From: an uncultured Nitrososphaerota archaeon
Lineage (GTDB): Archaea; Asgardarchaeota; Njordarchaeia; Njordarchaeales; Njordarchaeaceae
Reading direction: 5' to 3'
Length of the DNA stretch: 64,000 nt
Assembly (NCBI GenBank): GCA_964518475.1
Contig: CAZFGR010000001.1
Coordinates: 46,280 to 110,279 of the forward strand
Position numbers and translations under genes: made by a program. Position 1 is the stretch's first letter. Every line of letters begins with the position of its first letter. Shown piece after piece: positions 681 to 63,704 of the stretch. The notes under the pieces were generated by a model. That model saw only the letters and a list, made by a program, of their open reading frames with translations, was not told where the DNA came from and searched no databases.

Positions 681-992
681 TCATCCAAGCATATCAGCAG
701 AACTTATTTGGAACGAGACAATGTTGTATTCACGAAGAATATCCCCAACCTTCTTACCAGCAAAGTATATTGGTTCTCCTCCACCAGTCAATCCTATCCT
801 TCCGCTTTTTATGCCTAATTTTTCAGCTGCTTCAAGCACTACTCGCTCCATTGAATCATTTATTGTCGTTCTGATCGCTATTGTTTTTCTCAGATTATCC
901 GCCCTCTGGAAATATAGTGTAACTATTTCGGGCAATTCTTCGTGTTCCTCAGTTTGCTTAAGCTCAGCGATTTTTTTATCACGCGATTCCAT
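681..992 (-). CDS. Ubiquitin-fold modifier (UFM1/ubiquitin-like beta-grasp protein) ending in a single C-terminal Gly
   Basis: 103 aa. After a 22-aa charged leader, an 81-aa core shows ubiquitin-like strings (KTIAIRTTINDSMERVV..KLGI; IYFAGKKVGD.LREYNI, compare ubiquitin KTITLEVEPSDTIENVK..KEGI; LIFAGKQLEDGRTLSDYNI). It has the same length as mature human UFM1 (as recalled), including VLxxAAE and a terminal xG. The stop codon directly follows Gly. It lies next to a UBA5-like E1. Confidence 0.6.
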   Translation of the reverse strand: MESRDKKIAELKQTEEHEELPEIVTLYFQRADNLRKTIAIRTTINDSMERVVLEAAEKLGIKSGRIGLTGGGEPIYFAGKKVGDILREYNIVSFQISSADMLG

Positions 993-4855: not shown

Positions 4856-7800
4856 TCACTTTAATTTAGTAACTAGTTCCTTAATACTAATAGGTACAAC
4901 TATAGACTTCTTTTTCTCCTCATCATAATGCATATATACTATGTTATCGGCTGTTAAGAGAATTTCCTCTCTATGAGTAGTAGTTATGATTCCTTGAAAG
5001 TTCTTCAATGATCTTTTGATAACGTACATAATTTCCTCTAAGCTCTTATCATCTAGGAAAACATCAAACTCGTCAAACATATAAAGGGGAGCAGGAGCTG
5101 TTAAGAAAAGAGCTATAATCATTAACATTATAGCCGTCGTTTTTTCTCCAGAACTAAAACCCCCCTTATCAATCTCCACCGGTTTATCCCTATGAATGTC
5201 TATAGTGATTGAAAAATGGAGTTCTTCGGGTGAATCACCCTCCAACATTATTTCGCCGCGTGCCCCAATATATGATAAAAGCTCTTGGTAGTTCTCGTTA
5301 GCTTTCATAATCATTTTTCTTACAGAATTTATGAGATCGAGCAGTTCACGAGAATACAATTTTTTAATTTCTTGCACTTCAATATCCAATTCCTTAATTC
5401 TTCTCTTGATTTCTTCAATTCTTTGGAAAAACTCTTCAACTTCAAAAGCTTCTGACTCCATTTTAAAAATTGCTTCCTTATAGCTCTTTACACCCTCTTC
5501 TAGCTCTAAAGCTAGTTTTTCAAGATCATTTATATTCATGGCTTCCACAAGATTATTGGCTGGCTCTACAATTTCTTTTTTAATGAAGTCCTCAGTAGTC
5601 TTGTCTCTTGGTATAACATCGAGTCTCCTCATAATATCAAAAATTACTACTATCTCTCTCCTTGTTTTAGATAATTCCTCATCGATATTCTTAAGCTCCC
5701 TTTGCAAAAACCGTATCTTGGCGGGTAACTCCTCTTTCTCACGTTCTAGGGCTTTTATCTGGGCAGAAATATCTGCCTCCTCTTCAATAAGTTTTCTGAT
5801 TTGTTCTTCTAGGAAACTTCTTCTTTCCTCCAAACTTAGTACTTTCTGGTTACACTTCTCAATTTTATCCTGCATCTCATCTATTCTCTTGCTCCACGAC
5901 TCTATAGCTTGTTGAATAGATTTTATGCTTTCTGGCGCCTGCTTCAGCCGCTTCTTGATCATCTGTATTCTAGATATAATAGCCTCTATTTGCCTAATCT
6001 CTTCCTCCAACGAAAATTTTTCCTTTTCTAAACTAATAGCTTCTTTAGGCAATCTATTTCGAAGGAAATCTATTTCTTGTCGCAATCTCCTTATCTCAGA
6101 ATCTAGTGAATCTACCTGCGATAAAATCTCGTCTTCCATTTTAAGAAAATCTTCTAGAGAGAAACCGAGAATATCCACTAATATGCTTTCGGACTCCTCT
6201 CCGCCAATTCTCACATTATAAAAGACAGCGCCCGTGACTCTATCTCTCCTCCTCTCAACCACTGAACCATCAATAGTTACGGCTTTACTAAGACCCAGTC
6301 TATTAAGGATTAATGCAGCAGCCTTCTCGTCAAGTACTATGGGAACATCCCAATTCCTGGATTCTATAACGGCCAAGACGGGTTCAGGAGCTATAATAGC
6401 GTCGCAGACCCAGCCAGCTATTAGATACTCGTTGCCACCTAATACTTCCTTCGCCCTCTTTTTCAACAATTTTCGCTTCTTTTTTGCCTCGTTCACGATT
6501 CGTCTAGCGATGTCTAGAGCACTCTCACTTATTAATTCTCCAGAATCAGACCTACTTATAGTGATAATATCTATTCTCCCGCCTCCTCGATTTTTCCTCA
6601 CAATTTCAACCATCTTGTAATAAGCTTGAGGCGATGTTACGATAAATGCGGATAATAACCTTTTACCGAGGACATTCTCTATAGCCACCGCGTAATCCCT
6701 AAAAATATTTCCAGCAACTCTCGGTCTTATCTCCAGCAATACCGGACCATAGATCTCGCTTCTCAAAAGTTCTCTAGGAATAGTATTAAATACCCTCTCC
6801 AGAGACCCAGAATGATCGAGTTTTCTCAGCAAATTTCTTAGCTGTGTGCGCAACCCATCCAATTCCTTTATCAAAACTTTTTTCTCCACTTGTAATCTTT
6901 CGATATCTTCCCTTATCCCTTTTATCTTACGGAAAATCTCACTCTCGCTCAGTTTAGCCTCAATCCATTTTATTCTCTCAATTCTTTCAGAAATCATTCT
7001 CCTTAATTCCTCAGGATCGTCGCTGCCCCATTTCTTTCGGATTTCTTCAAGCTCTTGAAGCTCTTTCTCATACTTTTCTCTAACCTCTACAAGCTTTGCT
7101 TGATACTCCTTAACCTTCTCCTCAGCCTTTTTTAGTTCATACTCATACCCCACCTTCTCGCCCATGGTTATTCTCTCAATCTCCGATCTCACGTGCTCAT
7201 ACTCCTTATTTAGCTCATCTCTTCTCTTCCTAACTTTATCTAACGACTCATGCAATGCGACAATTTTTTCCTCAATCTCCTTGATCCTCCTCTGAAATTC
7301 CTCAAGTTCCGTTTCTAATCGACTCTTCGCACTCACTAAATACGCCAATTTGACTGCGTAATATCTCGTGAGTTTTTCCCTCGGCAATAATGGGTGGAGT
7401 ACCTTTTTACTCCTCTTAGTTACTTCCTCCTCCAACTCCCTTAGTTCCTTAACTAATTCCTTGCGTACTTTTTCTTTTTCCAGAATCTCATTTTTTACTC
7501 TCTCTAATCGATCACGTAGCTCTTTTAAACCTAAAACACTTAGAAGAAGATCCACTCTCTCCCTAGTTGATAGAGATACCCACTCATTCACCCTCTCCTG
7601 CGGCAAGAAGAAGAGCGTGTTACGAGGAGAAATATTCACCTTAACCAGCATCTTAATAACATCATTCTTCGTCACTTTTTTCCCATTAATCCTAAAAAAC
7701 GATTTCCCATCCCTATAAATCACGCGCTCCAGAACAACATCGGTATTCTCAGGGAGAAAATCAACCAGTCTAATCCTAGGTCTACCCGGAATATCTACAG

Positions 7801-8307: not shown

Positions 8308-8432
<125 letters not shown>

Positions 8433-9581: not shown

Positions 9582-10298
9582 TTATTTTCCTTTCTTCTTT
9601 TTAGTAGGTTCTTCTTCCTTCTTTTCTGCCCTCTTAGCCAATTCTTCTCTGCGCATTTCCTGGGCAATAATGGTTATTCTCTCTAATCTTCTCACACCTT
9701 TCTCTACTTTTATTCCCATTTCCTGAAGAAACAGTATCGTGTCTTCTTTTGTTAAGCGATGTCTTTCTGGTACTTTCGCTTTTCTTAGTCGTCTCCTCTT
9801 TACTCGATACCCTGCTCTTTCCATGCTGACGCATATGTCGAATCCCGTTGTTCCGAGCTCTGGGTCATACCTTACCCCCGGGATTTTTATGTGCTCATCA
9901 ATGCCAAAAGCGAAGTTTCCGTACTTATCTATTGATGATTCCCACACGGTATAGTCATAGACCGCAAGTACTCTTTTTAGGAAATTAAATGCTTCTTCAC
10001 CTCGAAGGGTTATTACCCATCCAATTGGTTGGTTTTTATGAATACCGAAGGGCTTTATTGTTTTCTTGGCTCTTACAAGTTTTGGTTTTCTACCAGTGAG
10101 TTCTTCGAGTATTTTCCTAGCTTTTTCTAAGGGTTCTCCAGATTGTCCGACAGAACAGTTAATAACAACTGAGTGTATTCTAGGAACCAGCATTGGGTTA
10201 GGATATCTATCAGGGTATTTCTCCAAGAGCTTCTCCATGACCTCTTTCATCGACTCTGCCAGTTTAACCGTCGTTGTTTTTGTGCTAGACATTCTCAA
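9582..10298 (-). CDS. rpl5: Ribosomal protein uL5 with a charged C-terminal extension
   Basis: NPMLVPRIHSVVINCSVGQSGE...ITLRGEEAFNFL...FGIDEHI..PG..YDP..G..GFD.. The homologous part ends near ..LQEMGIKVEKG. About 40 extra residues follow (RRLERITIIAQEMRREELAKRAEKKEEEPTKKKKGK). Confidence 0.9.
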   Translation of the reverse strand: MRMSSTKTTTVKLAESMKEVMEKLLEKYPDRYPNPMLVPRIHSVVINCSVGQSGEPLEKARKILEELTGRKPKLVRAKKTIKPFGIHKNQPIGWVITLRGEEAFNFLKRVLAVYDYTVWESSIDKYGNFAFGIDEHIKIPGVRYDPELGTTGFDICVSMERAGYRVKRRRLRKAKVPERHRLTKEDTILFLQEMGIKVEKGVRRLERITIIAQEMRREELAKRAEKKEEEPTKKKKGK

Positions 10299-10311
10299 TA
10301 CACCTCCTCAT

Positions 10312-11118
10312 TCATTGTGATGGTAAAACAAGAACTCTCTTCATGATTTCTCTAACTTCTTCTTCTGATGGTAGAGTGATCGCTGGTTTATCTTCGCCGA
10401 TTACAAGCACGTAATCTAGGGCTGTGATTATTTCTTCTCCACTTACTGTTTCAATGGTAGCTGTACTAGCCCTTGGACCGAACATTTTTGTTATCTCTTT
10501 AATAGTTCCGTGTTCTCCCATGTGTCTTCCCGCTGTTATTAAAGCGTACATTCCTTCCTTTAATCTGAAGTGTCCAAGAATTTTCTGCTCAGGTAGGGAG
10601 ATCATAAGAGAGTCTCCCACAAAGTAAGTATCTAATATTTTTCGTCGCTCCTCGTCACTACTTACTTTAAATAAAATGTTTCTACCGTCCTCAAGGTTTA
10701 ATTGGATATTAGCATTCTTGACATATCGTTTCCCAATGATCTTCACTATTTTATATTTAGCTTCCTCTGGTGTAATTCTATGTAGCACTAGCTTTCTTCT
10801 AAAAGGTAGGGTTCTGTAATACTCCTTCGTTCGCTCAATCTCTAGGACATCCATTAAACCTACGGGGAATTTGTAGTCCGTGATTACTCTTCCATCAATC
10901 TTAACTATCCTCTGGTTAAGAATGAATTTTACTTCCCTCAAAGTTCTTGCATAACCCAAAATGTCCCTAATGATTATTCCAAGAGGAATGCACCGATCAG
11001 CTGGATGGGGTCCCGGACTTGGTTTAATAGTAAACTTACCACCAACCTTTCTCGGAATGGGGAATAGCTTAGGCGCAGCTATCCTCTTAAGCTGTCTTCT
11101 CGGCCCGTGTTTCGTCAT
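10312..11118 (-). CDS. rps4e: Ribosomal protein eS4
   Basis: [14 protein letters not shown]...[58 protein letters not shown], the classic S4e N-terminal/S4/KOW pattern. Confidence 0.9.
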
Positions 11119-11181
11119 TCTTCTTCACCTTCTTCCTCTTCTAAACTAGATTCCTCCTCTTCTTCACCGATTTCTTCTTCC
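11115..11181 (-). repeat. Acidic-tail coding repeat, copy A (uL24 3' end)
   Basis: tcattcttcttcaccttcttcctcttctaaac ... cttcttcaccgatttcttc. The first 32 nt match 13693..13724 at 31/32, and a further identical 19-mer follows. Confidence 0.65.
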
Positions 11182-11621
11182 TTACCAATTTCTTCCTCAA
11201 CCTCGGTAGACTCTTCCTCGGCTTCCTCTAGAGAAACCTCCCTAACTTTTCTCTTTCGTTCATAAGCTTTTCGTCTTTTAGGGTCAGAGAGATCTAGTTC
11301 AAGAATAGCCACGTTCCATGGTCTTAAGGGAACATATACAGTGCTTCCATCCGATCTTTTTCTGGTAACATTTTCAACGTAGATTCTGTACCTTTTTAGA
11401 TCAACTTCAGTTATTTTTCCGACAGTGCCTTTAAATTGACCCTTTCTAACAACTACTTTATCACCGACACGTACTGGGAATCTCTTGATACCATACTTCT
11501 CTACAGCTTCTGGTGCTAAGGGAGCTACCATCATTTTTTGCCTCCTGTGGAGAGGCGCGTCGTATATGAACCTTTTCCTCATCTTTCTAGGTTGCTTTGA
11601 AATCCTAGATTTTATCTTCAT
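11115..11621 (-). CDS. rpl24: Ribosomal protein uL24 with a long acidic C-terminal tail
   Basis: KOW core [37 protein letters not shown] eukaryote-like basic segment [14 protein letters not shown] is followed by about 40 acidic residues ending LEEEEGEEE. The stop overlaps the eS4 start (ATGA). Confidence 0.9.
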
Positions 11622-11638
11622 GAGACAACTCCCCCATC

Positions 11639-12055
11639 TTACACAATTATCCTAGCAATCCTACCAACACTGGGCCACCTTCTGGCAGCCTCTCTCGCAA
11701 CTGGTCCATGGATCTCCGTTCCTAATGGTTCTCCTTCTGGATTTATCAAAACCGCGGCGTTATCTTCAAACTGTATCCATGTACCATCTTTTCTCCGATA
11801 AGGCATTCTCTGTCTTATAATCACGGCTCTAACGATGTTTTTACGCATTTTTGGCGTGCCCTCTTTGACTACGCAAACTACTACGTCTCCGATAGATGCT
11901 CTCGGAATTCTCCTCTTCCTGCCTTTGTACCCAATCACAGCAATGACTTGTAGGACTTTTGCACCCGAATTATCAGCACATATTAGCTTAGTCGTAACAT
12001 TGATACCAGGTGTCCCTTTTATTTTTGGGAAAGTAGCTGCTTTTCTCTTGGGCAT
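11639..12055 (-). CDS. rpl14: Ribosomal protein uL14
   Basis: [52 protein letters not shown]. Confidence 0.95.
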
Positions 12056-12129
12056 TATGATCTCCTCTCAAGATAAGAGTATCATACATCCTTAGTGAGT
12101 AGAATTTTCAACCCGAAAAGCTTAATAAA

Positions 12130-12477
12130 TTATCTCTTTTCCTCTTTTTCACCAGCTCTTTTTACCACTTGAACAACGACAAATTTCACAGTTTTTGCTA
12201 ATGGCCTTGTCTCCATTATCCTAACTATGTCTCCTTCTCTAGCATCGATACAGGGAGGGTTATGAGCCTTAATCTTTGATGATCTCTTCTCATACCTCTT
12301 GTATTTCTTATCTCTCCATAGATAATCTATTCTAACGGTTACCGTTCTTTGCATCTTATCAGAAACTACTACTCCTTCCAAAATTCTTCCACGTACTCTC
12401 AGGCTACCATGAAATGGACAGTTTTTATCATCACATTTTGTTGAGGGTTCTGGGAAAAGGCCTGCCAATACTCTCAC
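12130..12477 (-). CDS. rps17: Ribosomal protein uS17
   Basis: [39 protein letters not shown]...[29 protein letters not shown]. Confidence 0.9.
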
Positions 12478-12752
12478 CGTCTCCTACCAAGCTTTATCAA
12501 CTTTCTTAATCGATTAACTAGCAATTCACCCCTCACAATTATTTTAGTTTTTTCATCATAATAGATTTCGAAGACACAATTACCTTTAGGTACTAGTATT
12601 CTTTTACCATTGTTCTCTTCTATTTCCAACATGTTTCTAGTCTCATAAGTTATTATACCCTCTCTTCCCACCAGAGCCTCGTCTGTAGAGTCAATTATCC
12701 TGATTCTTTTCCCTAGTATGTTACCAAAGAGCCTCTTAGGGATTTTTTTCAT
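12474..12752 (-). CDS. rnp1: RNase P protein component 1 (Rpp29/Pop4)
   Basis: 92 aa in the conserved slot between uL29 and uS17. [47 protein letters not shown] matches the Rpp29 Sm-like pattern. Confidence 0.8.
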
Positions 12753-12754
12753 CT

Positions 12755-12952
12755 CTATATTTCCCCTAATTCTCTCATGATAGTCAATATTCTAGCAATG
12801 TCTCTCTTGATACTCTTAATCTTTCCAGTTTCCTTTAAAGCTCCTCTCTGTTTCCTAGTTAACATCGTTATTAAGGCTCTCTTCAGCTTCAGTAGTTCTT
12901 CTCTTCTTTGTTCTGGTTTCATTTTTCTTATATCATCGGGCTTCAGCGGCAT
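12755..12952 (-). CDS. rpl29: Ribosomal protein uL29
   Basis: 65 aa, MPLKPDDIRKMKPEQRREELLKLKRAL..; the position between uS3 and Rpp29 is conserved. Confidence 0.85.
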   Translation of the reverse strand: MPLKPDDIRKMKPEQRREELLKLKRALITMLTRKQRGALKETGKIKSIKRDIARILTIMRELGEI

Positions 12953-12955
12953 GGC

Positions 12956-13696
12956 TCACTCACTCTCCTCCTCAAATATTTCAGGAGCTCGCACTTCTTC
13001 TAAAGCAAGCATGGCTTTTTTGGCTTCTTCCTCAACAACTTGTTTGAATTTCTCTATGTCCCCACCCACATGCTCTAAAGGCTTAACTGTTATCCTATCC
13101 GGTAGTTTAGCAGTCGGCTTAACAATTGTTACTCTAACCCCAATAACACCAGTCTTTACTAGGATAGATGCTTTACCCACATCAACGTATTTGTAAGCGG
13201 GGTCGCCCGAGTGAACCAATAAGCCTTTAGCAAATCTATACTTCTTGGCACGTCTTTTCTGCAGTTTTCCCTTTACCCTTATTTCTACTCCGAGCGCTCC
13301 CTCTTGAAGAGCTTTGTTGATAACGCTATAAGCTATTCTTCTTACAGAGACTCCTCTTCCGATAGCTCGAGCAATTTCTTCTGCTAGTAGCTGGGCATTC
13401 AAAGTCGCATCTTTTACCTGTTCCACATTAATCTTCACATTCTCAAGTTTAAACCTCTCGCTAATCTTCCTCATTAATTCACGTGCTCTCCTGCCACGGG
13501 GACCTATTACTATTCCTGGATTCTTTGCATAGATAGTTATCTGATAACCACCTAGAGATAGGGGCGAAACATCTACTCCTACATACCCAGCAACTACCGG
13601 CAATTCTTCTTTAAGAAATTCATGAAGCTGAAGTCTTAGCAACATTTGCTTCAGAACTCTTTTGTGGAGAGTACCCACAACGTGCGATATACTCAT
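12956..13696 (-). CDS. rps3: Ribosomal protein uS3
   Basis: KH-domain region (..ITIYAKNPGIVIGPRGRRARELMRKISERF) plus a uS3 C-terminal domain (GRGVSVRRIAYSVINKALQEGALGVEIRVKGKL). Confidence 0.9.
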   Translation of the reverse strand: MSISHVVGTLHKRVLKQMLLRLQLHEFLKEELPVVAGYVGVDVSPLSLGGYQITIYAKNPGIVIGPRGRRARELMRKISERFKLENVKINVEQVKDATLNAQLLAEEIARAIGRGVSVRRIAYSVINKALQEGALGVEIRVKGKLQKRRAKKYRFAKGLLVHSGDPAYKYVDVGKASILVKTGVIGVRVTIVKPTAKLPDRITVKPLEHVGGDIEKFKQVVEEEAKKAMLALEEVRAPEIFEEESE

Positions 13697-13764
13697 TCTT
13701 CTTCACCTTCCTCCTCTTCTAAACCAGCTTCCCCCACCTCTTCTTCTTCACCGATTTCTTCCTC
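13693..13764 (-). repeat. Acidic-tail coding repeat, copy B (uL22 3' end)
   Basis: tcattcttcttcaccttcctcctcttctaaac ... cttcttcaccgatttcttc; near-identical to 11115..11181. Confidence 0.65.
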
Positions 13765-14334
13765 GGTTTCAGAAACTTCCTCTTCCACCTCTTCTTCAAC
13801 ACCCATTTCTTCCTCTCCTTCTTCGCTAACCATCTCCTCTGGAATCTCCATAACAACTACTTCCACATTAGTGCATCTCTTTATTTTCCATCCTCTGAGA
13901 AGACCTGGTCCCCTTCGATCAGGTCTCCTTCGAATAATCCTACCTTTATGTGCTACCATCCAAATTATTCTAAGACGCCTCTCATCCAGACCTTTATTTC
14001 TTGCATTATTAAGTGCATTCTCCAATACTTCGAGAATATATTTTGCTGCCTTGTATGGATATCTTCCAGCGGCCCATTTCCAGTCATGCAATTCTTTCCT
14101 GTGCCCGACATTCCCTTTAAATCTCTTAAAAGGCACTGCTGCTTTCTGCTCCATTACCGCCCTTAAATACCTAATTGCTTCATGCAGATACATACCCCTC
14201 TCCATAATCGCGTTGCATATCTCCCTAGCGTGTTTCCACTTAATAGGGAGCTCGTGTCCTCTTGCAAGCGCTATCCTCGTGGTATCTGGGAGCTCATGAA
14301 TAGGAAACGAGTAACCAGACCGTCCTTTAGCCAT
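13693..14334 (-). CDS. rpl22: Ribosomal protein uL22 with a long acidic C-terminal tail
   Basis: MAKGRSGYSF..ARGHELPIKWKHAREICNAIMERGMYLHEAIRYL..VPFKRF.G.VGHRK. The ATG at 14334 is the likely start (the track starts at TTG 14352). The roughly 55-aa acidic tail ends LEEEEGEEE, and the stop overlaps the uS3 start. Confidence 0.85.
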   Translation of the reverse strand: MAKGRSGYSFPIHELPDTTRIALARGHELPIKWKHAREICNAIMERGMYLHEAIRYLRAVMEQKAAVPFKRFKGNVGHRKELHDWKWAAGRYPYKAAKYILEVLENALNNARNKGLDERRLRIIWMVAHKGRIIRRRPDRRGPGLLRGWKIKRCTNVEVVVMEIPEEMVSEEGEEEMGVEEEVEEEVSETEEEIGEEEEVGEAGLEEEEGEEE

Positions 14335-14478
14335 TTCAGTAAACCTCAACACTCACTCGTTAATGCATTATAAGTTAATCACTTGCAGTTTGGATGCTAT
14401 TAAAAATTATTTCTCACAACTCACTCTTAATTCTTAATGAAAGTCATTAAGAACAGTTTTTCTCTACTTCATAACCAA

Positions 14479-16205: not shown

Positions 16206-18119
16206 ATGTTTAGTAGTGTATTATTAAGGAAAAATTACTGCAGATTATTCTATGTATTGAAAAGGATCAGTTATTTCCATAACATGTCTAAGCTAAAAAA
16301 GTTAATAACACTCTCACTCGTGTTGCTTATTTTCACCTTCTCCATATGCAGTGGGGCTAGGGGAGCAGCCCCAGATGTAAAAAGAATTGTAATAACTTAC
16401 AAAGATATGACTGGAAATGGGTACTTAGTATATAAGGAGAATGGAAATCTCACACAAGAAATATGTTTATTTGATTCAAGAGACCCTTATTATGCAAATA
16501 GACTAGAAGGGCCAAAAGGAACAGGATTATTACAATTCTTTAAGAATAGCAGTGGATTTTTCGTTGAGTTTAATGATCTAATCGAATTTGCGGGGTATAC
16601 TGATCCCTTCCCTATAAATTCCACAGTATCTTTCAGTCTTAAGATAAAAATTCTGCAAGGTACTTCCGTTCTCTCCGTTACCATTGGTGAACATAAGCTA
16701 AATGTTTCTCTATCAGCCCAAGATAAACCAGATGAAAAAGTCATCAACCTAACTTTTTTCGAACCTAAAAGCGCCAGTGAGTACTTCTTTGAATTAAAAC
16801 GATTTATTATTGTTTTAAAAAGCATAAGTGAGAAAACCAGAATATTTCTAGAGCAGGCAAGAGTATTTGCACATACATATACACCGTTGGTACCTATAAG
16901 ATTCTCGTATTATGATGTATCGGGTATCCGGATTGTCGCTAACACAAGTACTGTGAGAAATAATACTCTATACCTGTTAGGAACTTTTGGTCTCTATCTA
17001 CACCTAGATTATCGTTTAGATAAACGTAAATCTTCTATTTACGTCATATATCCAGCAGACATTATTTACGTAGACCCTAACGGAATAATCAACAATATTT
17101 CTATCGGTATTGATGCATGGGCCTATCCCCCCGTATTAGCAATATCACAGCAAATAACTGTGCCTAGTGAGAGAGGGCTAATCATTGATGCGTATATTCC
17201 ATTCTCAAAAATAGACCTATCTGTAGTTTATCTCAACCATTATCCAGCAGAAATAGAATGGCTCGATGCCGAGTATTATGATGAAATAAGCGTTCTAGGT
17301 TACGTAGCTAGGGAGATAATGACTAGATATGATGAAAAAATCCTCCTATTATTGCCAGGGAAATACCGCATATATCTCCACACACCAACGAGTTTAGGAG
17401 GATCTCTTTCATGCACCTTTACGGTAAACGTCGGGAATAAAAACATGGCGATCAGTATCGTGTTTAATGCGTTCTATATTAACGGTCTAGTTTTGCGTAT
17501 AGAGGAATTCCTACCAATATTAGTTAGTATCCTATTGGGATGCTTTTTATTAGTAGCTCCTCTCGCATTTTCGGACACTAGAGAAATGTACTTACAAGTA
17601 CTAAGAAGACCACTTTTTTATGCCATAATATTCCTACTCGTGTCAAGTTTTCTACCCTCCATAGGCGCTACTTATTTTAATAAGTATATCTCGCAAACAG
17701 AAGAAATAATGATAGTCGATCTATTCACCATTATATTATCTAAGAAAACAGGCAGTATCGTATACAAAATCGAATTCTACTATGTAACCTCCCTCTATGG
17801 TATTTTTCTCGCGATTTTTTGGCTTTTTTATCCTCTAGTAGTCATGTTTCGTGAAATTCTAAAACCTACTCTAGAGCTAAATGTTGCTCGCCTAAAGAGA
17901 ACCCTAACATTATCGCTCGTCGCAAAGATTATCTTCCTATCCACATTAGTAACTCTCCTTTACACTAATCCATATGGCAAGATCTTAGCTAGTTACCCCG
18001 GACTAGGTATTTTCCTATACGGATTATCAATCATACCGGTGCTTCTAGAACTTAGAAGAAGCCAAAAAATCAGGAAGATAACTTCATACTTAAAGAGAAA
18101 TAAATCGTCTATTATGTAA
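16206..18119 (+). CDS. Hypothetical membrane protein (signal/anchor, large extracytoplasmic domain, C-terminal multi-TM region)
   Basis: 637-aa ORF starting 2 nt after the Tfx-like gene. The likely start is M27 (MSKLKKLITLSLVLLIFTFSICSG, about 16284). It has several NxS/T sequons and at least 5 hydrophobic helices in the last 220 aa. Confidence 0.5.
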   Translation: MFSSVLLRKNYCRLFYVLKRISYFHNMSKLKKLITLSLVLLIFTFSICSGARGAAPDVKRIVITYKDMTGNGYLVYKENGNLTQEICLFDSRDPYYANRLEGPKGTGLLQFFKNSSGFFVEFNDLIEFAGYTDPFPINSTVSFSLKIKILQGTSVLSVTIGEHKLNVSLSAQDKPDEKVINLTFFEPKSASEYFFELKRFIIVLKSISEKTRIFLEQARVFAHTYTPLVPIRFSYYDVSGIRIVANTSTVRNNTLYLLGTFGLYLHLDYRLDKRKSSIYVIYPADIIYVDPNGIINNISIGIDAWAYPPVLAISQQITVPSERGLIIDAYIPFSKIDLSVVYLNHYPAEIEWLDAEYYDEISVLGYVAREIMTRYDEKILLLLPGKYRIYLHTPTSLGGSLSCTFTVNVGNKNMAISIVFNAFYINGLVLRIEEFLPILVSILLGCFLLVAPLAFSDTREMYLQVLRRPLFYAIIFLLVSSFLPSIGATYFNKYISQTEEIMIVDLFTIILSKKTGSIVYKIEFYYVTSLYGIFLAIFWLFYPLVVMFREILKPTLELNVARLKRTLTLSLVAKIIFLSTLVTLLYTNPYGKILASYPGLGIFLYGLSIIPVLLELRRSQKIRKITSYLKRNKSSIM

Positions 18120-26504: not shown

Positions 26505-27514
26505 TAATCATGAAAAACCCTAGTAAGTGTTTTCTATGCCCCCATGAGTGTGAGGACGTTAGCGATCTAGTTAATGGTCTTTGTTACATAATAGGCCGAG
26601 AGAAAACAAGAGGAATAAACACCGTCTCTGCCGAAATTGTAAACGTTGAATCAGCTGGTTTTTTTCATTTTTTTCCCGGACATGAAGCTGTGAAGATTGC
26701 TCTCCCCGGATGCAACTTGCGATGTCTCTTCTGTGATTACTTGGGTGGAGAGAAAAATTGGATCGTTATCTCAGAACTTGAGAAAAAACTTTCTCTTTTG
26801 CTTGAAAAGAGTTCTCCACTGATATTATTTCTGGATTGCAGTTTCTCTATACTTCCTCCAGAACCATTGACGAGGATTATAAAATGGAAGAAAGTGTATA
26901 GGGGCGATGTCTGGATAATCCACGCAACAAACGGTTTTGTTGACGAGAATCACTTTAAGAGCATTATTGAGCATCTGGACGCTCTCCTCGTAAAATTTTT
27001 TGGATTCTCGGATGAAGCTTACGGGAGGCTCACGATTACGCCACGGGCTTGGAAGTATGCACAAAAAATTGTTGAGAGAGTACTTGAGAGAGGTCCTCTA
27101 CTTGAACTATCATATACTATTGTCCCTGGCTTTAATGAAAAAGACTACAAGGAGTTCTTAAACTGGTTATCGTCGCTTAGACAATTTGATATACCACTTC
27201 ATATTAGACGATTTTATCCAAAACATTTGTTAAAGAATAAAGCACCTACACGAACCAAGATTCTCATGGACGCTTTTAAGGAAGCCAAAAAGATGGGTTT
27301 TAATTACGTCTATATCGACGATATATACGAAGGCGTACCCAGAAATACTTATTGTCCTAATGACAGAACCCTCTTAATACGGAGAGTAGGATATTTCGTA
27401 GAGAACACAGGAATCATCGAATCAAAATGTAAAAAGTGTGGAAAAAGAATTAATGTTTTTGGAAAAATAAAGGAAACGGACATAAGAAGCATATTAAAAC
27501 TTCCAGGAGAATGA
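26501..27514 (+). CDS. Radical SAM enzyme, PflA/AmmeMemoRadiSam-like
   Basis: CX3CX2C cluster motif in LPGCNLRCLFCDY. An N-terminal Cys box KCFLCPHEC...GLC and a C-terminal YCPNDRTLLIRR......KCKKCGKRI are arranged as in AmmeMemoRadiSam-system radical SAM proteins. Confidence 0.7.
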   Translation: MIIMKNPSKCFLCPHECEDVSDLVNGLCYIIGREKTRGINTVSAEIVNVESAGFFHFFPGHEAVKIALPGCNLRCLFCDYLGGEKNWIVISELEKKLSLLLEKSSPLILFLDCSFSILPPEPLTRIIKWKKVYRGDVWIIHATNGFVDENHFKSIIEHLDALLVKFFGFSDEAYGRLTITPRAWKYAQKIVERVLERGPLLELSYTIVPGFNEKDYKEFLNWLSSLRQFDIPLHIRRFYPKHLLKNKAPTRTKILMDAFKEAKKMGFNYVYIDDIYEGVPRNTYCPNDRTLLIRRVGYFVENTGIIESKCKKCGKRINVFGKIKETDIRSILKLPGE

Positions 27515-28134
27515 TTCTAATGAGTGACAATAGAAATGATAGCACTCTCATCAATATAAAGGAAGCAATTAACGATCACGTTGTTATCAGATTTGATAAA
27601 CATCTAAGACAAACCATAATTAAGCTAGAACTACACTTGATGAGATTACCTAATAACTATTTCTTAACAATCTTTAAGCATTGCCTAGATATATGGATTC
27701 GCCGCCCTCTCCCTCTGTTTAACATAAAGGCAGGTCCAAGTGATAGAAACTGGTCTTTGAGAATAAGAGAGGAAAAGCGGGTCTTTCGGATACTTAAAAA
27801 GCATAACCCGTTCAGCAATATTATCTCTTACCAATTATTAGAAAATGCTGATTCGAAGGGGAAGAAATGGATCCTCATTTACTTAGATACATTAACTTAT
27901 CAGCCTAAACACGTCGAAATAACGATTCCTAATAATTATCCTCGAACACCCCCGGTAGTACACAGCCATGAGATAAAAAAGTTAGATCAGTGCCTCAACA
28001 AAGCGGATGAAAATATAGCGTCCCTATGGAGGAAAGATGGTAGATACGGTATTCCTCATTTTTTGGCATACTTTTTTTCTCCTTTGCTATATATGACCGC
28101 TTCTATTTTAAAAATAAGAAAAATATTCCAATAA
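27511..28134 (+). CDS. UFC1-like E2 (UBC-fold) protein, putative active-site Cys161
   Basis: KAGPSDRNWSLRIREEK (human UFC1 NAGPRDRELWVQRLKEE, from memory); VEITIPNNYPRTPPVV (FDIPITYPTTAPEI); QCLNK....ASLWRKDGRYGIPHFLAYFFSPLL ([32 protein letters not shown]). The Cys codon is at 27991..27993. There is an extra N-terminal extension of about 70 aa. Confidence 0.7.
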   Translation: MILMSDNRNDSTLINIKEAINDHVVIRFDKHLRQTIIKLELHLMRLPNNYFLTIFKHCLDIWIRRPLPLFNIKAGPSDRNWSLRIREEKRVFRILKKHNPFSNIISYQLLENADSKGKKWILIYLDTLTYQPKHVEITIPNNYPRTPPVVHSHEIKKLDQCLNKADENIASLWRKDGRYGIPHFLAYFFSPLLYMTASILKIRKIFQ

Positions 28135-31815: not shown

Positions 31816-32385
31816 GTGTTAGCGATAGTTGTTGTATTTGATTTAGAAGGAGTTCTGATCGATAATCACAAGAGACTAAGGCACGCTCTCAGAAAACTAA
31901 GCGTTAACTCGATTAATGATATTCCGATGAGTAAGAAGACCTTATTCTGGAAAATATATTTCGATCCAAACCTAGCAGAGAGACTTGATAGCGTGAATTT
32001 GGACGCATTAAAAATCTTGCTTAAGAAAAAGGCGGAGGGATATAAAATAGCCATTATATCGGGTGCACCAAAAGAAATAGTTAACATAGGTTTAAGAAAA
32101 CTTCGAGAAATAGCTGAAAAAGAAAACCATAAACTTGGGATAGACTACGTTTTCTGGCGTCCTCCGGGGGATAAACGAAAAGCGAGTGCATTTAAGCTTG
32201 ATGTTGCAAAGCGCTTGAAAACTTTATTTCGAGAAGAAATTGTTGAAATTCATGACGATGATTATAACGTTATCGAAAGCTTTAGAAAAATTGGTGTTAA
32301 GACTTATTATTGGAGGAACTTAAAACTGGTTAATGATGAATCCCTCGTGGACCGAAAAGAGCATGAAGACCGCGACCTACGCTGA
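31816..32385 (+). CDS. HAD-superfamily hydrolase-like protein
   Basis: Motif I-like VVFDLEGVLID (second Asp replaced by Glu), IAIISGAPKE (motif II region), ..EIHDDDYN (motif IV-like). Confidence 0.5.
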   Translation: MLAIVVVFDLEGVLIDNHKRLRHALRKLSVNSINDIPMSKKTLFWKIYFDPNLAERLDSVNLDALKILLKKKAEGYKIAIISGAPKEIVNIGLRKLREIAEKENHKLGIDYVFWRPPGDKRKASAFKLDVAKRLKTLFREEIVEIHDDDYNVIESFRKIGVKTYYWRNLKLVNDESLVDRKEHEDRDLR

Positions 32386-33806: not shown

Positions 33807-34409
33807 GTGCATCCGAAGATGCCACGAAACAGCAAGATGATCTCCTTGAGCAAGTTTCTATCCCTTCTCCTTAGACATAGACCGGATCTCCTTGACTTAA
33901 AAATGCGGAAAGATGGTTTTGTACGTGTTGAGGAACTACTAAGAAAAGTAAGGAAACGGCCAGGATTCGGTTGGGTGACTGAAGAGGACATAAAATTCCT
34001 TGTGAAGAATGACCCAAAACAACGCTTTGAACTGAAATACGAGAACGGAGAATTATTTATTCGAGCAAGATACGGCCATAGTAAAGCTCTAAAGATAAAT
34101 GTGCGATATAATCCTGTGAAACTAGGAAAAATAAAATATCTCTATCATGGTACTAGAGCAGACGTACTGCCTTGGATTTTGAGAGAAGGATTAAAACCCA
34201 TGGCTAGAAAATACGTACACCTCTCTCCCACACCCGCCGATGCCATGGAAGTAGCTAAGAGGAGAAAAGGTAAACCAGTTATCCTACAGATTGATGTGGA
34301 GGAATTCCTTAAAGATGGAGGAAAAATATGGAAAGCTACAGAAAAAGTCTATCTAGCTAAGGAAATCCCCCCAAAATATATCAAGATATACAAATACGGT
34401 TATGACTAA
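33807..34409 (+). CDS. kptA: RNA 2'-phosphotransferase (Tpt1/KptA)
   Basis: ISLSKFLSLLLRHRPDLLDLKMRKDGFVRVEELL, ..RARYGHS, LYHGT, YVHLS; the Tpt1 H-R-H-R catalytic signature context. Confidence 0.8.
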   Translation: MHPKMPRNSKMISLSKFLSLLLRHRPDLLDLKMRKDGFVRVEELLRKVRKRPGFGWVTEEDIKFLVKNDPKQRFELKYENGELFIRARYGHSKALKINVRYNPVKLGKIKYLYHGTRADVLPWILREGLKPMARKYVHLSPTPADAMEVAKRRKGKPVILQIDVEEFLKDGGKIWKATEKVYLAKEIPPKYIKIYKYGYD

Positions 34410-46322: not shown

Positions 46323-47658
46323 ATGGCTAGAAAGAAACCACACATAAACTTAGTTATTATCGGGCACGTAGACCATGGAAAGAGCACCACCGTAGGACAC
46401 TTCCTCTATCTAGTAGGCGCGATTGATGATAGAGTAATTAAGAAGTACGAGGAAGAGGCAAAGCAAATCGGAAGAGAATCTTGGAAGTACGCCTGGGTGC
46501 TAGATAAACTCGCAGAAGAAAGAAAGAGAGGACTTACAATAGACCTAGGATACTTCAAATTCGAAACACCAAAGTACATGTTCACAATCATCGATGCCCC
46601 TGGACACAGAGACTTCATCAAGAACATGATTACTGGTGCAAGTCAAGCAGACGCGGCGATTCTAGTAGTTTCCGCTAAAAGAAACGAGTTTGAAGCTGGA
46701 TATGCTCTAGGAGGACAGACACGAGAGCACGCCATCTTAGCTAAGACACTAGGGATCGATCAAATGATTGTTCTCATTAACAAAATGGATGCCGTGAACT
46801 GGGACAAATCGGTCTATGAAGAAATAAAGAACGAAATGCTAAGATTCCTAACAGGCATCGGTTACAAGCCAGACCAAATAAAAGCCGTGATACCTGTAAG
46901 CGGACTACTAGGAGACAACCTGAAGGAGAAGTCTCCTAACATGCCTTGGTATGACGGACCTACACTATACGAAGCCCTCGACCTCCTTGAACCACCCAAA
47001 CCAATGGTCGATAAGCCGTTCAGAATGCCCATCCAGAAAGTCTTCAAGATAAAGGGTGTTGGAACAGTAGTAACTGGAAGAGTCGAAACTGGAAAACTAA
47101 AGAAAGGAGACCAAGTAATAATCCAGCCTCTAGGAAAGCAAACAATCGCACAATCCATCGAGATGCACCACGAACCCCTAGACGAAGCAGTACCAGGAGA
47201 TAACGTAGGCGTAAACCTCAAAGGAATATCGGCCGACGAAGTCAAACGTGGTGACGTCATGGGTCATCCCGATAACCCACCAACAGTCGTTGGACCAGGA
47301 TATGGTACATTCCTAGCTAGAGTATGGGTCATCTGGCACCCAACAAGCATAAGTGCTGGTTACACACCCGTAATGCATGCGCATACACTACAAGTAGCTA
47401 CTAGGTTCGTACACTTACACGCAAAGTACGGACCAAAAGGCGAACTACTAGAAGAAAATCCAAGCTTTATAAAGAAAGGAGAATACGCCCTAGTAGAGCT
47501 CGAACCAATCAAACCATCAGTCATCGAGAAATTCAGCGAATTCCCACCATTAGGGCGCTTCGCTGTACGGGATACCGTGGGGGTTCACGCCCCCACGGCC
47601 CGAAATGGGACAGCTAGTGGCCGTAGGAGTCGTCCAGGAGATCAAGAAGGCGCAATAA
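46323..47658 (+). CDS. tuf: Translation elongation factor EF-1alpha, interrupted by a 31-nt BHB element (exon 1 46323..47573, exon 2 47605..47658)
   Basis: GHVDHGKST, DAPGHRDF, NKMD, ...FPPLGRFAVRD, then a frame break. The +1 frame from 47605 reads MGQLVAVGVVQEIKKAQ-stop, which is the canonical C-terminus. The joined product is 434 aa. The SD-like GGTGA sits 7 nt upstream of the ATG. Confidence 0.9.
47574..47604 (+). other. Putative bulge-helix-bulge (BHB) intron inside the EF-1alpha coding sequence
   Basis: Central helix CGGG(47568-71)/CCCG(47599-602); bulges ATA(47572-74) and AAA(47603-05); inner 9-bp helix CCGTGGGGG(47575-83)/CCCCCACGG(47590-98) with loop ttcacg. Excision of 31 nt restores the frame. 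Confidence 0.75.
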
Positions 47659-47922
47659 TCCCAGCGGAGCCAATAATTTCTCTTCCCAGAATTTTACCAA
47701 TTTTTTCTTTTCCCATTGCTAATTCTCTCTAAACTTATTTTTGTTTTTTATGAAAATATTCTGTTGAAGAATTTTGCAAAGCAAAAAGATTAATGCCTAT
47801 AAGGCTATTTTACTCACTCTCACTTGTATAAAATTCCTAGTTTCGATATGAAAGAAAATGTCTTACTTAAGATGAGAGAGAACGTAACCAAGAGTTTTTA
47901 GAAAAGGATAAATTAAAGGTTT

Positions 47923-57956: not shown

Positions 57957-60323
<2,367 letters not shown>

Positions 60324-63122: not shown

Positions 63123-63704
63123 ATGATCTCTGATTTTGAAAATGTGATAAAGAAGCTAGAGGAAGTTATAAAAGCCATAGAAGATTTCGAGAAAAAATGG
63201 GGAAAAACTGTTGAATTTAAGGAATTTGATCTCCACCAAATAGTGGTTCCTCTGAAAAAGCGACCAAGTCTTCTTGATAGAATAACTGGCAAATATTATT
63301 CGGATCTCGCTCTTGAAATTCTGAGTGTTGCCGATAACGATAAACTATCGCTCATAAGTGTAGGAGATTTAATTATGAGGGTGAAGAAATCGATTCCGTA
63401 TGCCAATACAGATGACGTCCTGAAAGCGCTTGATATATTAAAGAGGAAGGGATTAGTTACCGACTTATTCCGGGAAGGTGGTGTATTGTATGTGGAATTT
63501 CCCACAATTTATGAGGATATAAGAAGACTTATCCAATTATTCAAGCAAGAGAGAAAAGAGTATATTACCTTGGAAGAAGCTGCCGAGAAACTTGATTGGA
63601 GTTTAGTGAAGGCATATAGAGTATTAGAGAGAATGGTAGAGCTTGGAATATTAGTTCGAGAGAATTTTCCTAGGAGATATTGGTTGATAAAGAAGACAAG
63701 ATAA
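63123..63704 (+). CDS. Vps22/SNF8-like ESCRT-II subunit (EAP30 tandem winged-helix protein)
   Basis: GKYYSDLALEILSV....LSLISVGDLIMRVKKS....NTDDVLKALDILKRKGLVTDLFREGGVLYVEFP......ITLEEAAEKLDWSLVKAYRVLERMVELGILVRENFPRRYWL parallels human SNF8 (from memory) GDFYYELGVQIIEV...GGLITLEELHQQV......VSQDDLIRAIKKLKALG.GFGIIPVGGTYLIQSVP....YVTVSEIKASLKWETERARQVLEHLLKEGLAWLD...HYWL. Confidence 0.6.
   Translation: MISDFENVIKKLEEVIKAIEDFEKKWGKTVEFKEFDLHQIVVPLKKRPSLLDRITGKYYSDLALEILSVADNDKLSLISVGDLIMRVKKSIPYANTDDVLKALDILKRKGLVTDLFREGGVLYVEFPTIYEDIRRLIQLFKQERKEYITLEEAAEKLDWSLVKAYRVLERMVELGILVRENFPRRYWLIKKTR

Follow-up and report, generated by a model that had tools for sequence, protein, structure and literature searches.

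A predicted bulge-helix-bulge intron in the EF-1alpha coding sequence of Njordarchaeales

The window analysed here is the whole 64,000-nucleotide stretch of contig CAZFGR010000001.1, in which the gene for the translation factor EF-1alpha carries a GC-rich 31-nt element (47574-47604) at the point where its C-terminus leaves the reading frame. Annotations of the nearest proteins read Candidatus Njordarchaeales, Njordarchaeia or Njordarchaeum, and NCBI places Njordarchaeales under Promethearchaeati, the Asgard kingdom. The EF-1alpha open reading frame (ORF; 46323-47732, plus strand, 469 aa) is canonical as far as ...FPPLGRFAVRD, which ends with codon 47571-73, and then continues as the non-homologous tail TVGVHAPTARNG..., with 52 codons after FAVRD free of stops. 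The normal EF-1alpha C-terminus, MGQLVAVGVVQEIKKAQ and a stop codon, is encoded in the +1 frame of 47605-47658. Excising the 31 nt and joining 47573 to 47605 places GAT and ATG in frame and gives a product of 434 aa. The original prediction had described both the frame change after FAVRD and the in-frame product left by removal of exactly 31 nt, and our translations reproduced each of them. Residues 4-433 of the spliced product matched Aeropyrum pernix EF-1alpha (3VMF) with E = 1e-170, and the stretch across the junction, RFAVRD followed by MGQLVAVG, aligned without a gap to solved EF-1alpha structures. The Pfam domains GTP_EFTU, D2 and D3 are recorded on EF-1alpha orthologues. The gene keeps its position, adjoined by those for S27ae and S24e, and the site of the element lies 17 codons ahead of the EF-1alpha stop.

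In the predicted spliced RNA, GGGAU would be joined to AUGGGACAG (GGGAU-AUGGG), and the junction peptide would be DMGQLVAVGVVQEIK, whose read-through counterpart is TVGVHAPTAR. Moving the cut one base 3' at both sites would give an identical product. The window's read-through ORF is present in a public collection as a 469-aa protein annotated EF-1 alpha (P0121). The exact spliced EF-1alpha proteins were absent from a collection of 15 billion proteins, and an 83-aa query spanning the junction returned no scored matches there, the word index being weak for short queries.

The element has a GC content of 74%, against 38.7% for the window, and is the sole stretch outside the three tRNA genes to reach 75% GC over 30 nt. 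Its RNA can fold into a bulge-helix-bulge structure (BHB), the substrate of the archaeal splicing endonuclease. The 4-bp central helix, CGGG/CCCG, is invariant in all alleles that carry the intron at this site. On the 5' side the fold agrees with the BHB definition: in the minimum-free-energy (MFE), centroid and consensus folds alike, AUA stays unpaired and a 10-bp helix comes next. The offset of this bulge from the central helix is the same as in both tRNA introns of the window. The closing pair of the inner helix is U.G in the window and C-G in relatives. On the 3' side, the canonical 3-nt AAA bulge requires an outer helix of just 2 bp (A-U and U.G). The GC enrichment, the central helix and the ATA bulge of the original prediction were borne out, as was its AAA bulge in the canonical register. 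Its inner helix of 9 bp with a 6-nt loop is corrected to 10 bp with a 4-nt loop, and its description of the motif as "textbook" holds for the 5' half but not for the 3' half, with its 2-bp outer helix and, in the MFE fold, 7-nt bulge. The most fitting description of the motif is canonical on the 5' side but relaxed on the 3' side, as in the HBh' type.

To what extent such a fold arises by chance was evaluated by shuffling the 31-mer two million times with its composition preserved. In register, the central helix appeared in 4.4% of the shuffles, the central helix with an inner helix of at least 5 bp in 2.2e-4, and the central helix with an inner helix of at least 9 bp only once (5e-7). The in-register fold is beyond chance; the bare motif is not.

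The pairing is also retained as the sequence changes. In an alignment of six sequences with 16 pairs (96 pair cells), standard pairs occupied 96/96 cells, and none of the 16 pairs is lost in the four 31-nt variants. Both partners changed in two pairs (G-C to A-U) and one partner in two more (to wobble); the remaining intron differences were confined to the loop or to the middle position of the 3' bulge. When the partners were slid by 1-3 columns, pairing fell to 37-50%. Between the window allele and a sister allele (L001), exon 1 differs at 239/1251 nt (29, 8 and 202 at the first, second and third codon positions; 23 amino-acid changes), so that about half of its third positions differ, whereas the intron differs at 1/31 nt. 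The intron is thus far more constrained than the third codon positions of exon 1. Among intron-bearing alleles, the variable columns of exon 2 number 2, 2 and 10 by codon position of the spliced frame; judged by this pattern, exon 2 is evidently under purifying selection in that frame. Its read-through frame is not conserved and gives unrelated peptides in different alleles. CGG is the rarest Arg codon of the window (31/871, 3.6%), and the single CGG of exon 1 is the Arg codon of the central helix; this Arg is encoded by CGG in alleles with the intron at the site and by AGA or AGG in those without an insert there.

The EF-1alpha orthologues fall into four groups, with a 31-nt, a 46-nt, a 49-nt or no insert. 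The presence or absence of the element in related loci was a check raised by the original prediction: close relatives without the insert were found beside those with it, and it was absent from every more distant archaeon sampled. The 46-nt insert contains a 16-bp hairpin (z = -6.8), and its excision restores RD-MAQLVAVG. For the 49-nt form the same cut rule, after the second base of each bulge, yields FAIRDMGQ or FAIREMGQ. Over the 31-, 46- and 49-nt forms the rule gives GAU/AUG or AU/A-AGA junctions (slash, cut) and restores FAIRDMGQ, FAIRDMAQ and FAIREMGQ. In a rough neighbour-joining tree the intron-bearing alleles were interspersed with intronless ones inside one subclade.

The same geometry is found in two intron-containing tRNA genes of the window. 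The tRNA-Met(CAT) intron has the helix CUCA/UGGG with bulges UAA and AAA, and the tRNA-Arg(GCG) intron the helix CUGC/GCGG with bulges GGA and AGA. In both, the 5' strand runs anticodon stem, 4-bp helix, 3-nt bulge, and the 3' strand 4-bp helix, 3-nt bulge (AAA, AGA), stem. Reading by hand confirmed the earlier statement that cutting behind the second bulge nucleotide yields the 37/38 junction in both. The EF-1alpha element shares with these 37/38 introns the 4-bp helix, the cut rule, an A-rich 3' bulge (AAA or AGA) and, in its canonical register, a 3-nt bulge 3' of each helix strand. It differs in the outer helix, which is a stable anticodon stem in the tRNAs but in EF-1alpha a weak pairing between the exons, of 2-6 bp in different alleles and registers; and in the outcome, since splicing there makes an anticodon loop and here would make a reading frame. 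The features of the EF-1alpha locus, its relatives and the window's RNA-processing genes are listed in Table 1.

Table 1. Features of the EF-1alpha element, insert forms among orthologues, and RNA-processing features of the window
Feature	Position or insert length	Strand	Remarks
EF-1alpha exon 1	46323..47573	+	417 codons, end ...FPPLGRFAVRD; ORF list, translation
Predicted intron, 31 nt, ACCGTGGGGGTTCACGCCCCCACGGCCCGAA	47574..47604	+	Missing at exactly this point in intronless orthologues
EF-1alpha exon 2, MGQLVAVGVVQEIKKAQ plus stop	47605..47658	+	+1 frame relative to exon 1; translation
Outer helix, exon-1 side	47562..47567	+	Canonical pairs T47566.G47607 and A47567-T47606; other registers use 47562-66
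Central helix, 5' strand CGGG	47568..47571	+	Arg codon CGG plus G of GAT; pairs with 47599-47602 in every fold
5' three-base bulge ATA	47572..47574	+	Unpaired in all folds; predicted cut after 47573
Inner hairpin	47575..47598	+	10 bp (47575-84 with 47589-98), 4-nt loop
Central helix, 3' strand CCCG	47599..47602	+	Inside intron; folds, alignment
3' bulge AAA	47603..47605	+	Predicted cut after 47604; middle base A, G or T among alleles
Outer helix, exon-2 side	47606..47614	+	Folds
Group a, window allele	31 nt		CGGG.AUA.CCGUGGGGG-UUCACG-CCCCCACGG.CCCG.AAA
Group a, P0001 type	31 nt, same point		18 contigs, 93% aa identity; loop CUCACG
Group a, P0002 type (L007, L075)	31 nt, same point		CCAUAGGGG...CCCCUAUGG, bulge AGA
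Group a, P0003 type (L008, L009, L014, L071)	31 nt, same point		CCCUCACGG, bulge AUA
Group b, L073 (3878-3923)	46 nt, same point		CGGG.AUA...CCCG.AGA core around unrelated hairpin
Group c, L010 (4242-4290), L011, L074, L072	49 nt, 6 nt upstream		Own core CGCC.AUA...GGCG.AGA; two alleles
Group d, P0004, P0005, P0006, P0009-11, P0013, L015, L016	No insert		...RD-MG... read directly
tRNA-Met(CAT) gene 8308-8429, 47-nt BHB intron	8347..8393	+	Rfam tRNA 63 bits; read by hand
tRNA-Arg(GCG) gene 63883-63787, 22-nt BHB intron	63844-63823	-	ARAGORN, Rfam; read by hand
Tpt1/KptA RNA 2'-phosphotransferase	33807-34409	+	Pfam E = 6e-42
Weak match to HAD/PNKP-type phosphatase	31816-32385	+	1.4 kb upstream of Tpt1/KptA

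Taken together, these sequence comparisons make it very probable that the 31 nt are a BHB intron in the EF-1alpha pre-mRNA of Njordarchaeales, and the intron of the original prediction was supported by every in-silico test run. The mechanism we propose is modelled throughout on known archaeal tRNA and cbf5 splicing. In the transcript, the exon-1 CGGG would pair with the intron CCCG to form the 4-bp central helix, flanked on one side by the AUA bulge and the GC-rich 10-bp hairpin and on the other by the AAA bulge and a weak exon-exon helix. The tRNA splicing endonuclease EndA would cut at 47573/74 and 47604/05, after the second base of each bulge. An RtcB-type ligase would then join GAU to AUG, restoring ...FAVRD-MGQLVAVGVVQEIKKAQ, and the 31-mer would be set free, probably as a circle. 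For Asgard archaea, reports describe an (alpha-beta)2 EndA whose L1 loop permits relaxed motifs; (alpha-beta)2 and epsilon2 enzymes accept motifs such as HBh' (PMC5829648), and the (alpha-beta)2 type cuts cbf5 pre-mRNA (PMC2738675, PMC5829648). This tolerance fits the weak 3' half of the EF-1alpha element.

Several observations weigh against splicing at this site. The folds do not agree on the 3' bulge: in the MFE fold it has 7 nt, with GCUGU pairing with ACAGC instead; in the consensus fold of four alleles one A faces the two unpaired bases 47603-04, and 47605 is paired to T47566; and the 49-nt form has an MFE fold without any 3' bulge. The covariation comes from few independent alleles, and 13/500 column shuffles reached the observed score; the outer-helix pairs, being invariant, are uninformative and lend no covariation support. 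Five places in the window matched a BHB descriptor that asked for a Watson-Crick central helix of 4 bp, at least 8 bp in the inner and 2 bp in the outer helix, and no more than 60 nt of intron; the average over 60 dinucleotide shuffles was 1.9. Such matches are as common as in shuffled sequence, and the motif alone therefore proves nothing; the descriptor scan suggested earlier, run here over the window, showed it not to be rare. EndA and RtcB were not found in the 64-kb window by Pfam scans of ~60 ORFs, although its two tRNA genes with BHB introns suggest that the splicing machinery exists. Finally, the insert lengths of 31, 46 and 49 nt are all 1 mod 3, a property that +1 frameshifting would need and splicing does not. 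With such lengths an unspliced mRNA always enters the same wrong frame of exon 2. The shared length class could be a coincidence (about 1 in 9), shared descent via indels of 3n, or selection on the coding content of the unspliced message.

If the insert is removed from RNA, another nuclease and ligase, or an excision route that recognises the hairpin, might act in place of EndA and RtcB. The relaxed or non-canonical 3' site in the folds speaks for this, as do the failure to locate EndA and RtcB in the window scans and the presence there of Tpt1/KptA, an enzyme of the alternative 5'-phosphate ligation pathway. However, the 4-bp helix, the 3-nt bulges and the after-second-base rule fit three different inserts exactly, both tRNA introns of the window share the same geometry, and (alpha-beta)2 EndA is known to take relaxed motifs and to cleave cbf5 pre-mRNA (PMC2738675, PMC5829648); we consider such a route very improbable. 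Programmed +1 frameshifting, in which the insert would be translated and the shift made near its 3' end, with the hairpin as stimulator and an internal insertion of 10-16 aa as the result, is less probable still. It would account for the 1 mod 3 lengths and for the lack of a frame-0 stop codon in any insert. Yet no shift site is conserved (CGA AAU G, CGA GAU G, CGA UAU G or AAG AGA UAU), and a stimulator normally lies downstream of the shift site, here upstream. The insert peptides are unrelated between forms (TVGVHAPTAR, NWSVTALDAVAGQSR, PYGAAENGMMWLLGGE), and within the 31-nt form the RNA keeps its pairs although 4/10 residues change. Such an insertion would moreover split the conserved RFAVRD-MGQ of domain 3, gapless in all solved homologues. 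Translational bypassing of the T4 gene 60 type was rejected, as take-off and landing codons do not match: take-off would be from GAU, exon 2 is preceded by GAA, GAG or GAU according to the allele, and the 49-nt form has no match.

That the 469-aa read-through is the real product, and the hairpin a translational or stability element or a tolerated insertion, is what the public annotation of this ORF as EF-1alpha and the 52 open codons would lead one to believe. The tails, however, differ between alleles (GTASGRRSRPGDQE, GAARSGGSGKGGQE, GTTSGSWSSSGSQE), whereas the +1 frame keeps MGQLVAVGVV and changes mainly at third positions, and a read-through protein would be without the final conserved part of domain 3, which no solved homologue lacks. 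We give this explanation little credence, below that of frameshifting. That the gene is a pseudogene in decay, or the result of an assembly or sequencing error, and that a functional copy exists elsewhere, seems the least probable of all. One relative does have an assembly artefact at this very locus. Nevertheless, the alleles recur across separate assemblies, P0001 on 18 contigs and the window allele on four, including NCBI GCA_054385735.1 and ENA ERZ1742239 (coverage 22x), and the two fetched loci (ENA, NCBI GCA_054385735.1) are 100% identical over the gene, which argues against an artefact; the separate ENA and NCBI assemblies carry the same 31 nt that the original prediction had named as a possible assembly error. 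Against decay stand the third-position bias of exon 1 (202/239 differences from the sister allele), the selection on exon 2 and the gene's retained place beside S27ae and S24e. In addition, no second EF-1alpha was recovered in a genome scan of the intron-bearing Njordarchaeota metagenome-assembled genome (MAG) B77_G9 (94% aa identity), a scan that did not cover the window's genome. A self-splicing group I or II intron was rejected, as 31 nt compare with a core of hundreds of nt and no Rfam match was obtained. Also rejected was a repeat or mobile-element origin: the 24-mer hairpin has no second occurrence in the window, the phage collection gave no match, and Rfam, searched with 47450-47750 at E up to 10, gave only a chance CRISPR-repeat match outside the element.

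Past the EF-1alpha stop codon, two intronless lineages carry a second copy of the exon-1 end. In the P0004 lineage (L076-79) this copy has 41 nt and lies 173 nt downstream (in L076, 4208-4248 and 4381-4421, with 1 mismatch). This relic copy stops exactly at the splice site of the relatives and is followed by unrelated AT-rich sequence. In a sister strain, 12% diverged, the same arrangement (L088 1960-2189) forms a perfect direct repeat of ~80 nt (A-B-UTR-A', where UTR is the untranslated region). The relic copy is real; that it is the footprint of an intron-bearing 3' end replaced by a spliced copy, i.e., of intron loss, may be proposed as speculation. On L013 (3728-3781) and L084-87 (~5790-5850), EF-1alpha is cut to 426 aa and ends ...FAIRDICKIFPRIFC and a stop, that is, FAIRD plus 10 foreign residues. 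These contigs come from four independent assemblies (ENA, JGI, NCBI) and include a GTDB representative MAG. As the gene in them stops right at the splice site, a split or trans-spliced gene was considered, and was rejected. The missing exon-2 segment was found on a separate 2.2-kb contig of the same strain (L088), whose ~80-nt perfect repeat indicates that the long contigs are a collapsed repeat. Thus, repeat collapse at this locus has left a truncated EF-1alpha gene in MAGs of several independent assemblies.

Elsewhere in the 64 kb, the descriptor and GC scans revealed no further GC-rich, frame-restoring element. GC spikes at 1388-1423, 16348-16377 and others were rejected as introns, being ordinary coding sequence. 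One of the descriptor matches, at ~16782-16830 (+), is a formally perfect, AT-rich hBHBh' motif with a 5-bp outer helix, CUUU/AAAG, bulges GAA and CAU and a 10-bp inner helix, which is also the MFE structure (-8.6 kcal/mol). It sits in an uninterrupted 637-aa ORF (16206-18119) with no Pfam match, and excising its 32 nt would shorten the ORF to ~197 aa. It is probably a chance occurrence, less probably an EndA cleavage site. On L016 (~778-850, minus strand), the AT-rich spacer that lies upstream of an intronless EF-1alpha gene contains a GC-rich inverted repeat of 13 bp (GGGGCCUAAGGCC...GGCCUUAGGCCCC) with a smaller hairpin inside it, which might be a processing site or a small structured RNA. 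Several ribosomal-protein ORFs at 9582-14352 (-) look long or are partly unmatched by their Pfam profile: residues 8-123 of L24 match a profile of 82 positions, L22 has 219 aa and L5 has 238 aa. These likely reflect start codons set too far upstream or insertions particular to the lineage; a GC-rich insert was not seen in this region.

The window also encodes a Tpt1/KptA RNA 2'-phosphotransferase and, upstream of it, a weak match to a HAD/PNKP-type phosphatase (Table 1). Tpt1/KptA and PNKP-type enzymes belong to the 5'-phosphate "healing and sealing" route of tRNA splicing in fungi and plants. Among the eukaryote-like genes typical of Asgard archaea are EAP30/Vps36 (ESCRT-II; 63123-63704), CDC48 (58062-60323), a UFC1-like E2 (27511-28134) and a ThiF-like E1 (1469-2236), and Snf7 adjoins EF-1alpha on the related contigs L076 and L084. 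GC-rich tRNAs in an AT-rich genome suggest a thermophile.

If the intron is what it appears to be, the tRNA-splicing machinery can be required for the mRNA of an essential, highly expressed translation gene. As Njordarchaeales are grouped with the Asgard archaea, it would also be relevant to how mRNA splicing by protein enzymes developed before eukaryotes. The naturally occurring forms (inserts of 31, 46 or 49 nt, or none) are ready-made substrates for studying EndA specificity. The C-terminus in the public 469-aa records would then be false, in a protein widely used as a phylogenetic marker.

Eukaryotes have an unconventional cytoplasmic mRNA splicing of their own in HAC1/XBP1, carried out by IRE1 plus tRNA ligase or RtcB. 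Both cases have a short, frame-changing intron near the 3' part of the coding sequence that RNA structure defines, that a protein endonuclease cuts out and whose flanks the tRNA-splicing ligase joins, as is proposed here for EF-1alpha. In contrast to the EF-1alpha element, however, the HAC1/XBP1 nuclease is IRE1, the cuts fall at paired stem-loops and the splicing is stress-regulated, whereas no regulation was seen for EF-1alpha. By analogy, the intron might couple EF-1alpha synthesis to the tRNA-splicing enzymes, as an archaeal counterpart of HAC1/XBP1, with mini-introns perhaps mobile in Njordarchaeales; we regard this extension as unlikely. Hints of mobility are the three inserts at two sites 6 nt apart, the patchy distribution and the relic copies in two intronless lineages.

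In the literature searched, cbf5 of Crenarchaeota has since 2002 been the only archaeal coding sequence known to carry an endonuclease-type intron (PMC2738675, PMC7714728), and the reference list of PMC12397907 likewise names cbf5 as a coding-sequence BHB intron. A literature search found no report of a BHB intron in EF-1alpha, Njordarchaeales or Asgard, in agreement with the earlier claim that cbf5 is the precedent and that no case is known in an essential translation factor. On the sequence evidence, EF-1alpha would be the second archaeal protein-coding gene known to need BHB splicing. A further mRNA substrate of the archaeal splicing endonuclease is the BHB intron of Haloferax volcanii HVO_1309 (Schwarz 2020, PMC7714728), beside which cbf5 is stated to be the only other mRNA case (PMC7714728); that intron lies in the untranslated leader (5'-UTR), whereas the EF-1alpha intron interrupts coding sequence. 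The cbf5 intron of Desulfurococcales and Sulfolobales (Watanabe 2002; Yokobori 2009, PMC2738675) is located at the catalytic-Asp codon, and the EF-1alpha element was rejected as its orthologue, the host gene being another. For cbf5 splicing has been experimentally shown, while for EF-1alpha it is predicted from sequence. The two are alike in being short (16-44 bp for cbf5) and without an ORF, in interrupting coding sequence, in a motif of BHB type whose cut, predicted for EF-1alpha, separates bulge bases two and three, in patchy gain and loss among close relatives and in being routinely missed by annotation. The cbf5 motif is often relaxed, which has been tied to the hetero-oligomeric EndA (PMC2738675), and the EF-1alpha motif is relaxed as well. 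They differ in host, a pseudouridine synthase as opposed to an essential, very highly expressed translation factor; in lineage, Crenarchaeota as opposed to Njordarchaeales; and in that the EF-1alpha intron lies near the 3' end and comes as three structurally distinct inserts at two sites 6 nt apart. In conclusion, the EF-1alpha element is very probably of the same intron class as that of cbf5, from which it differs in host gene, lineage and multiplicity of forms.

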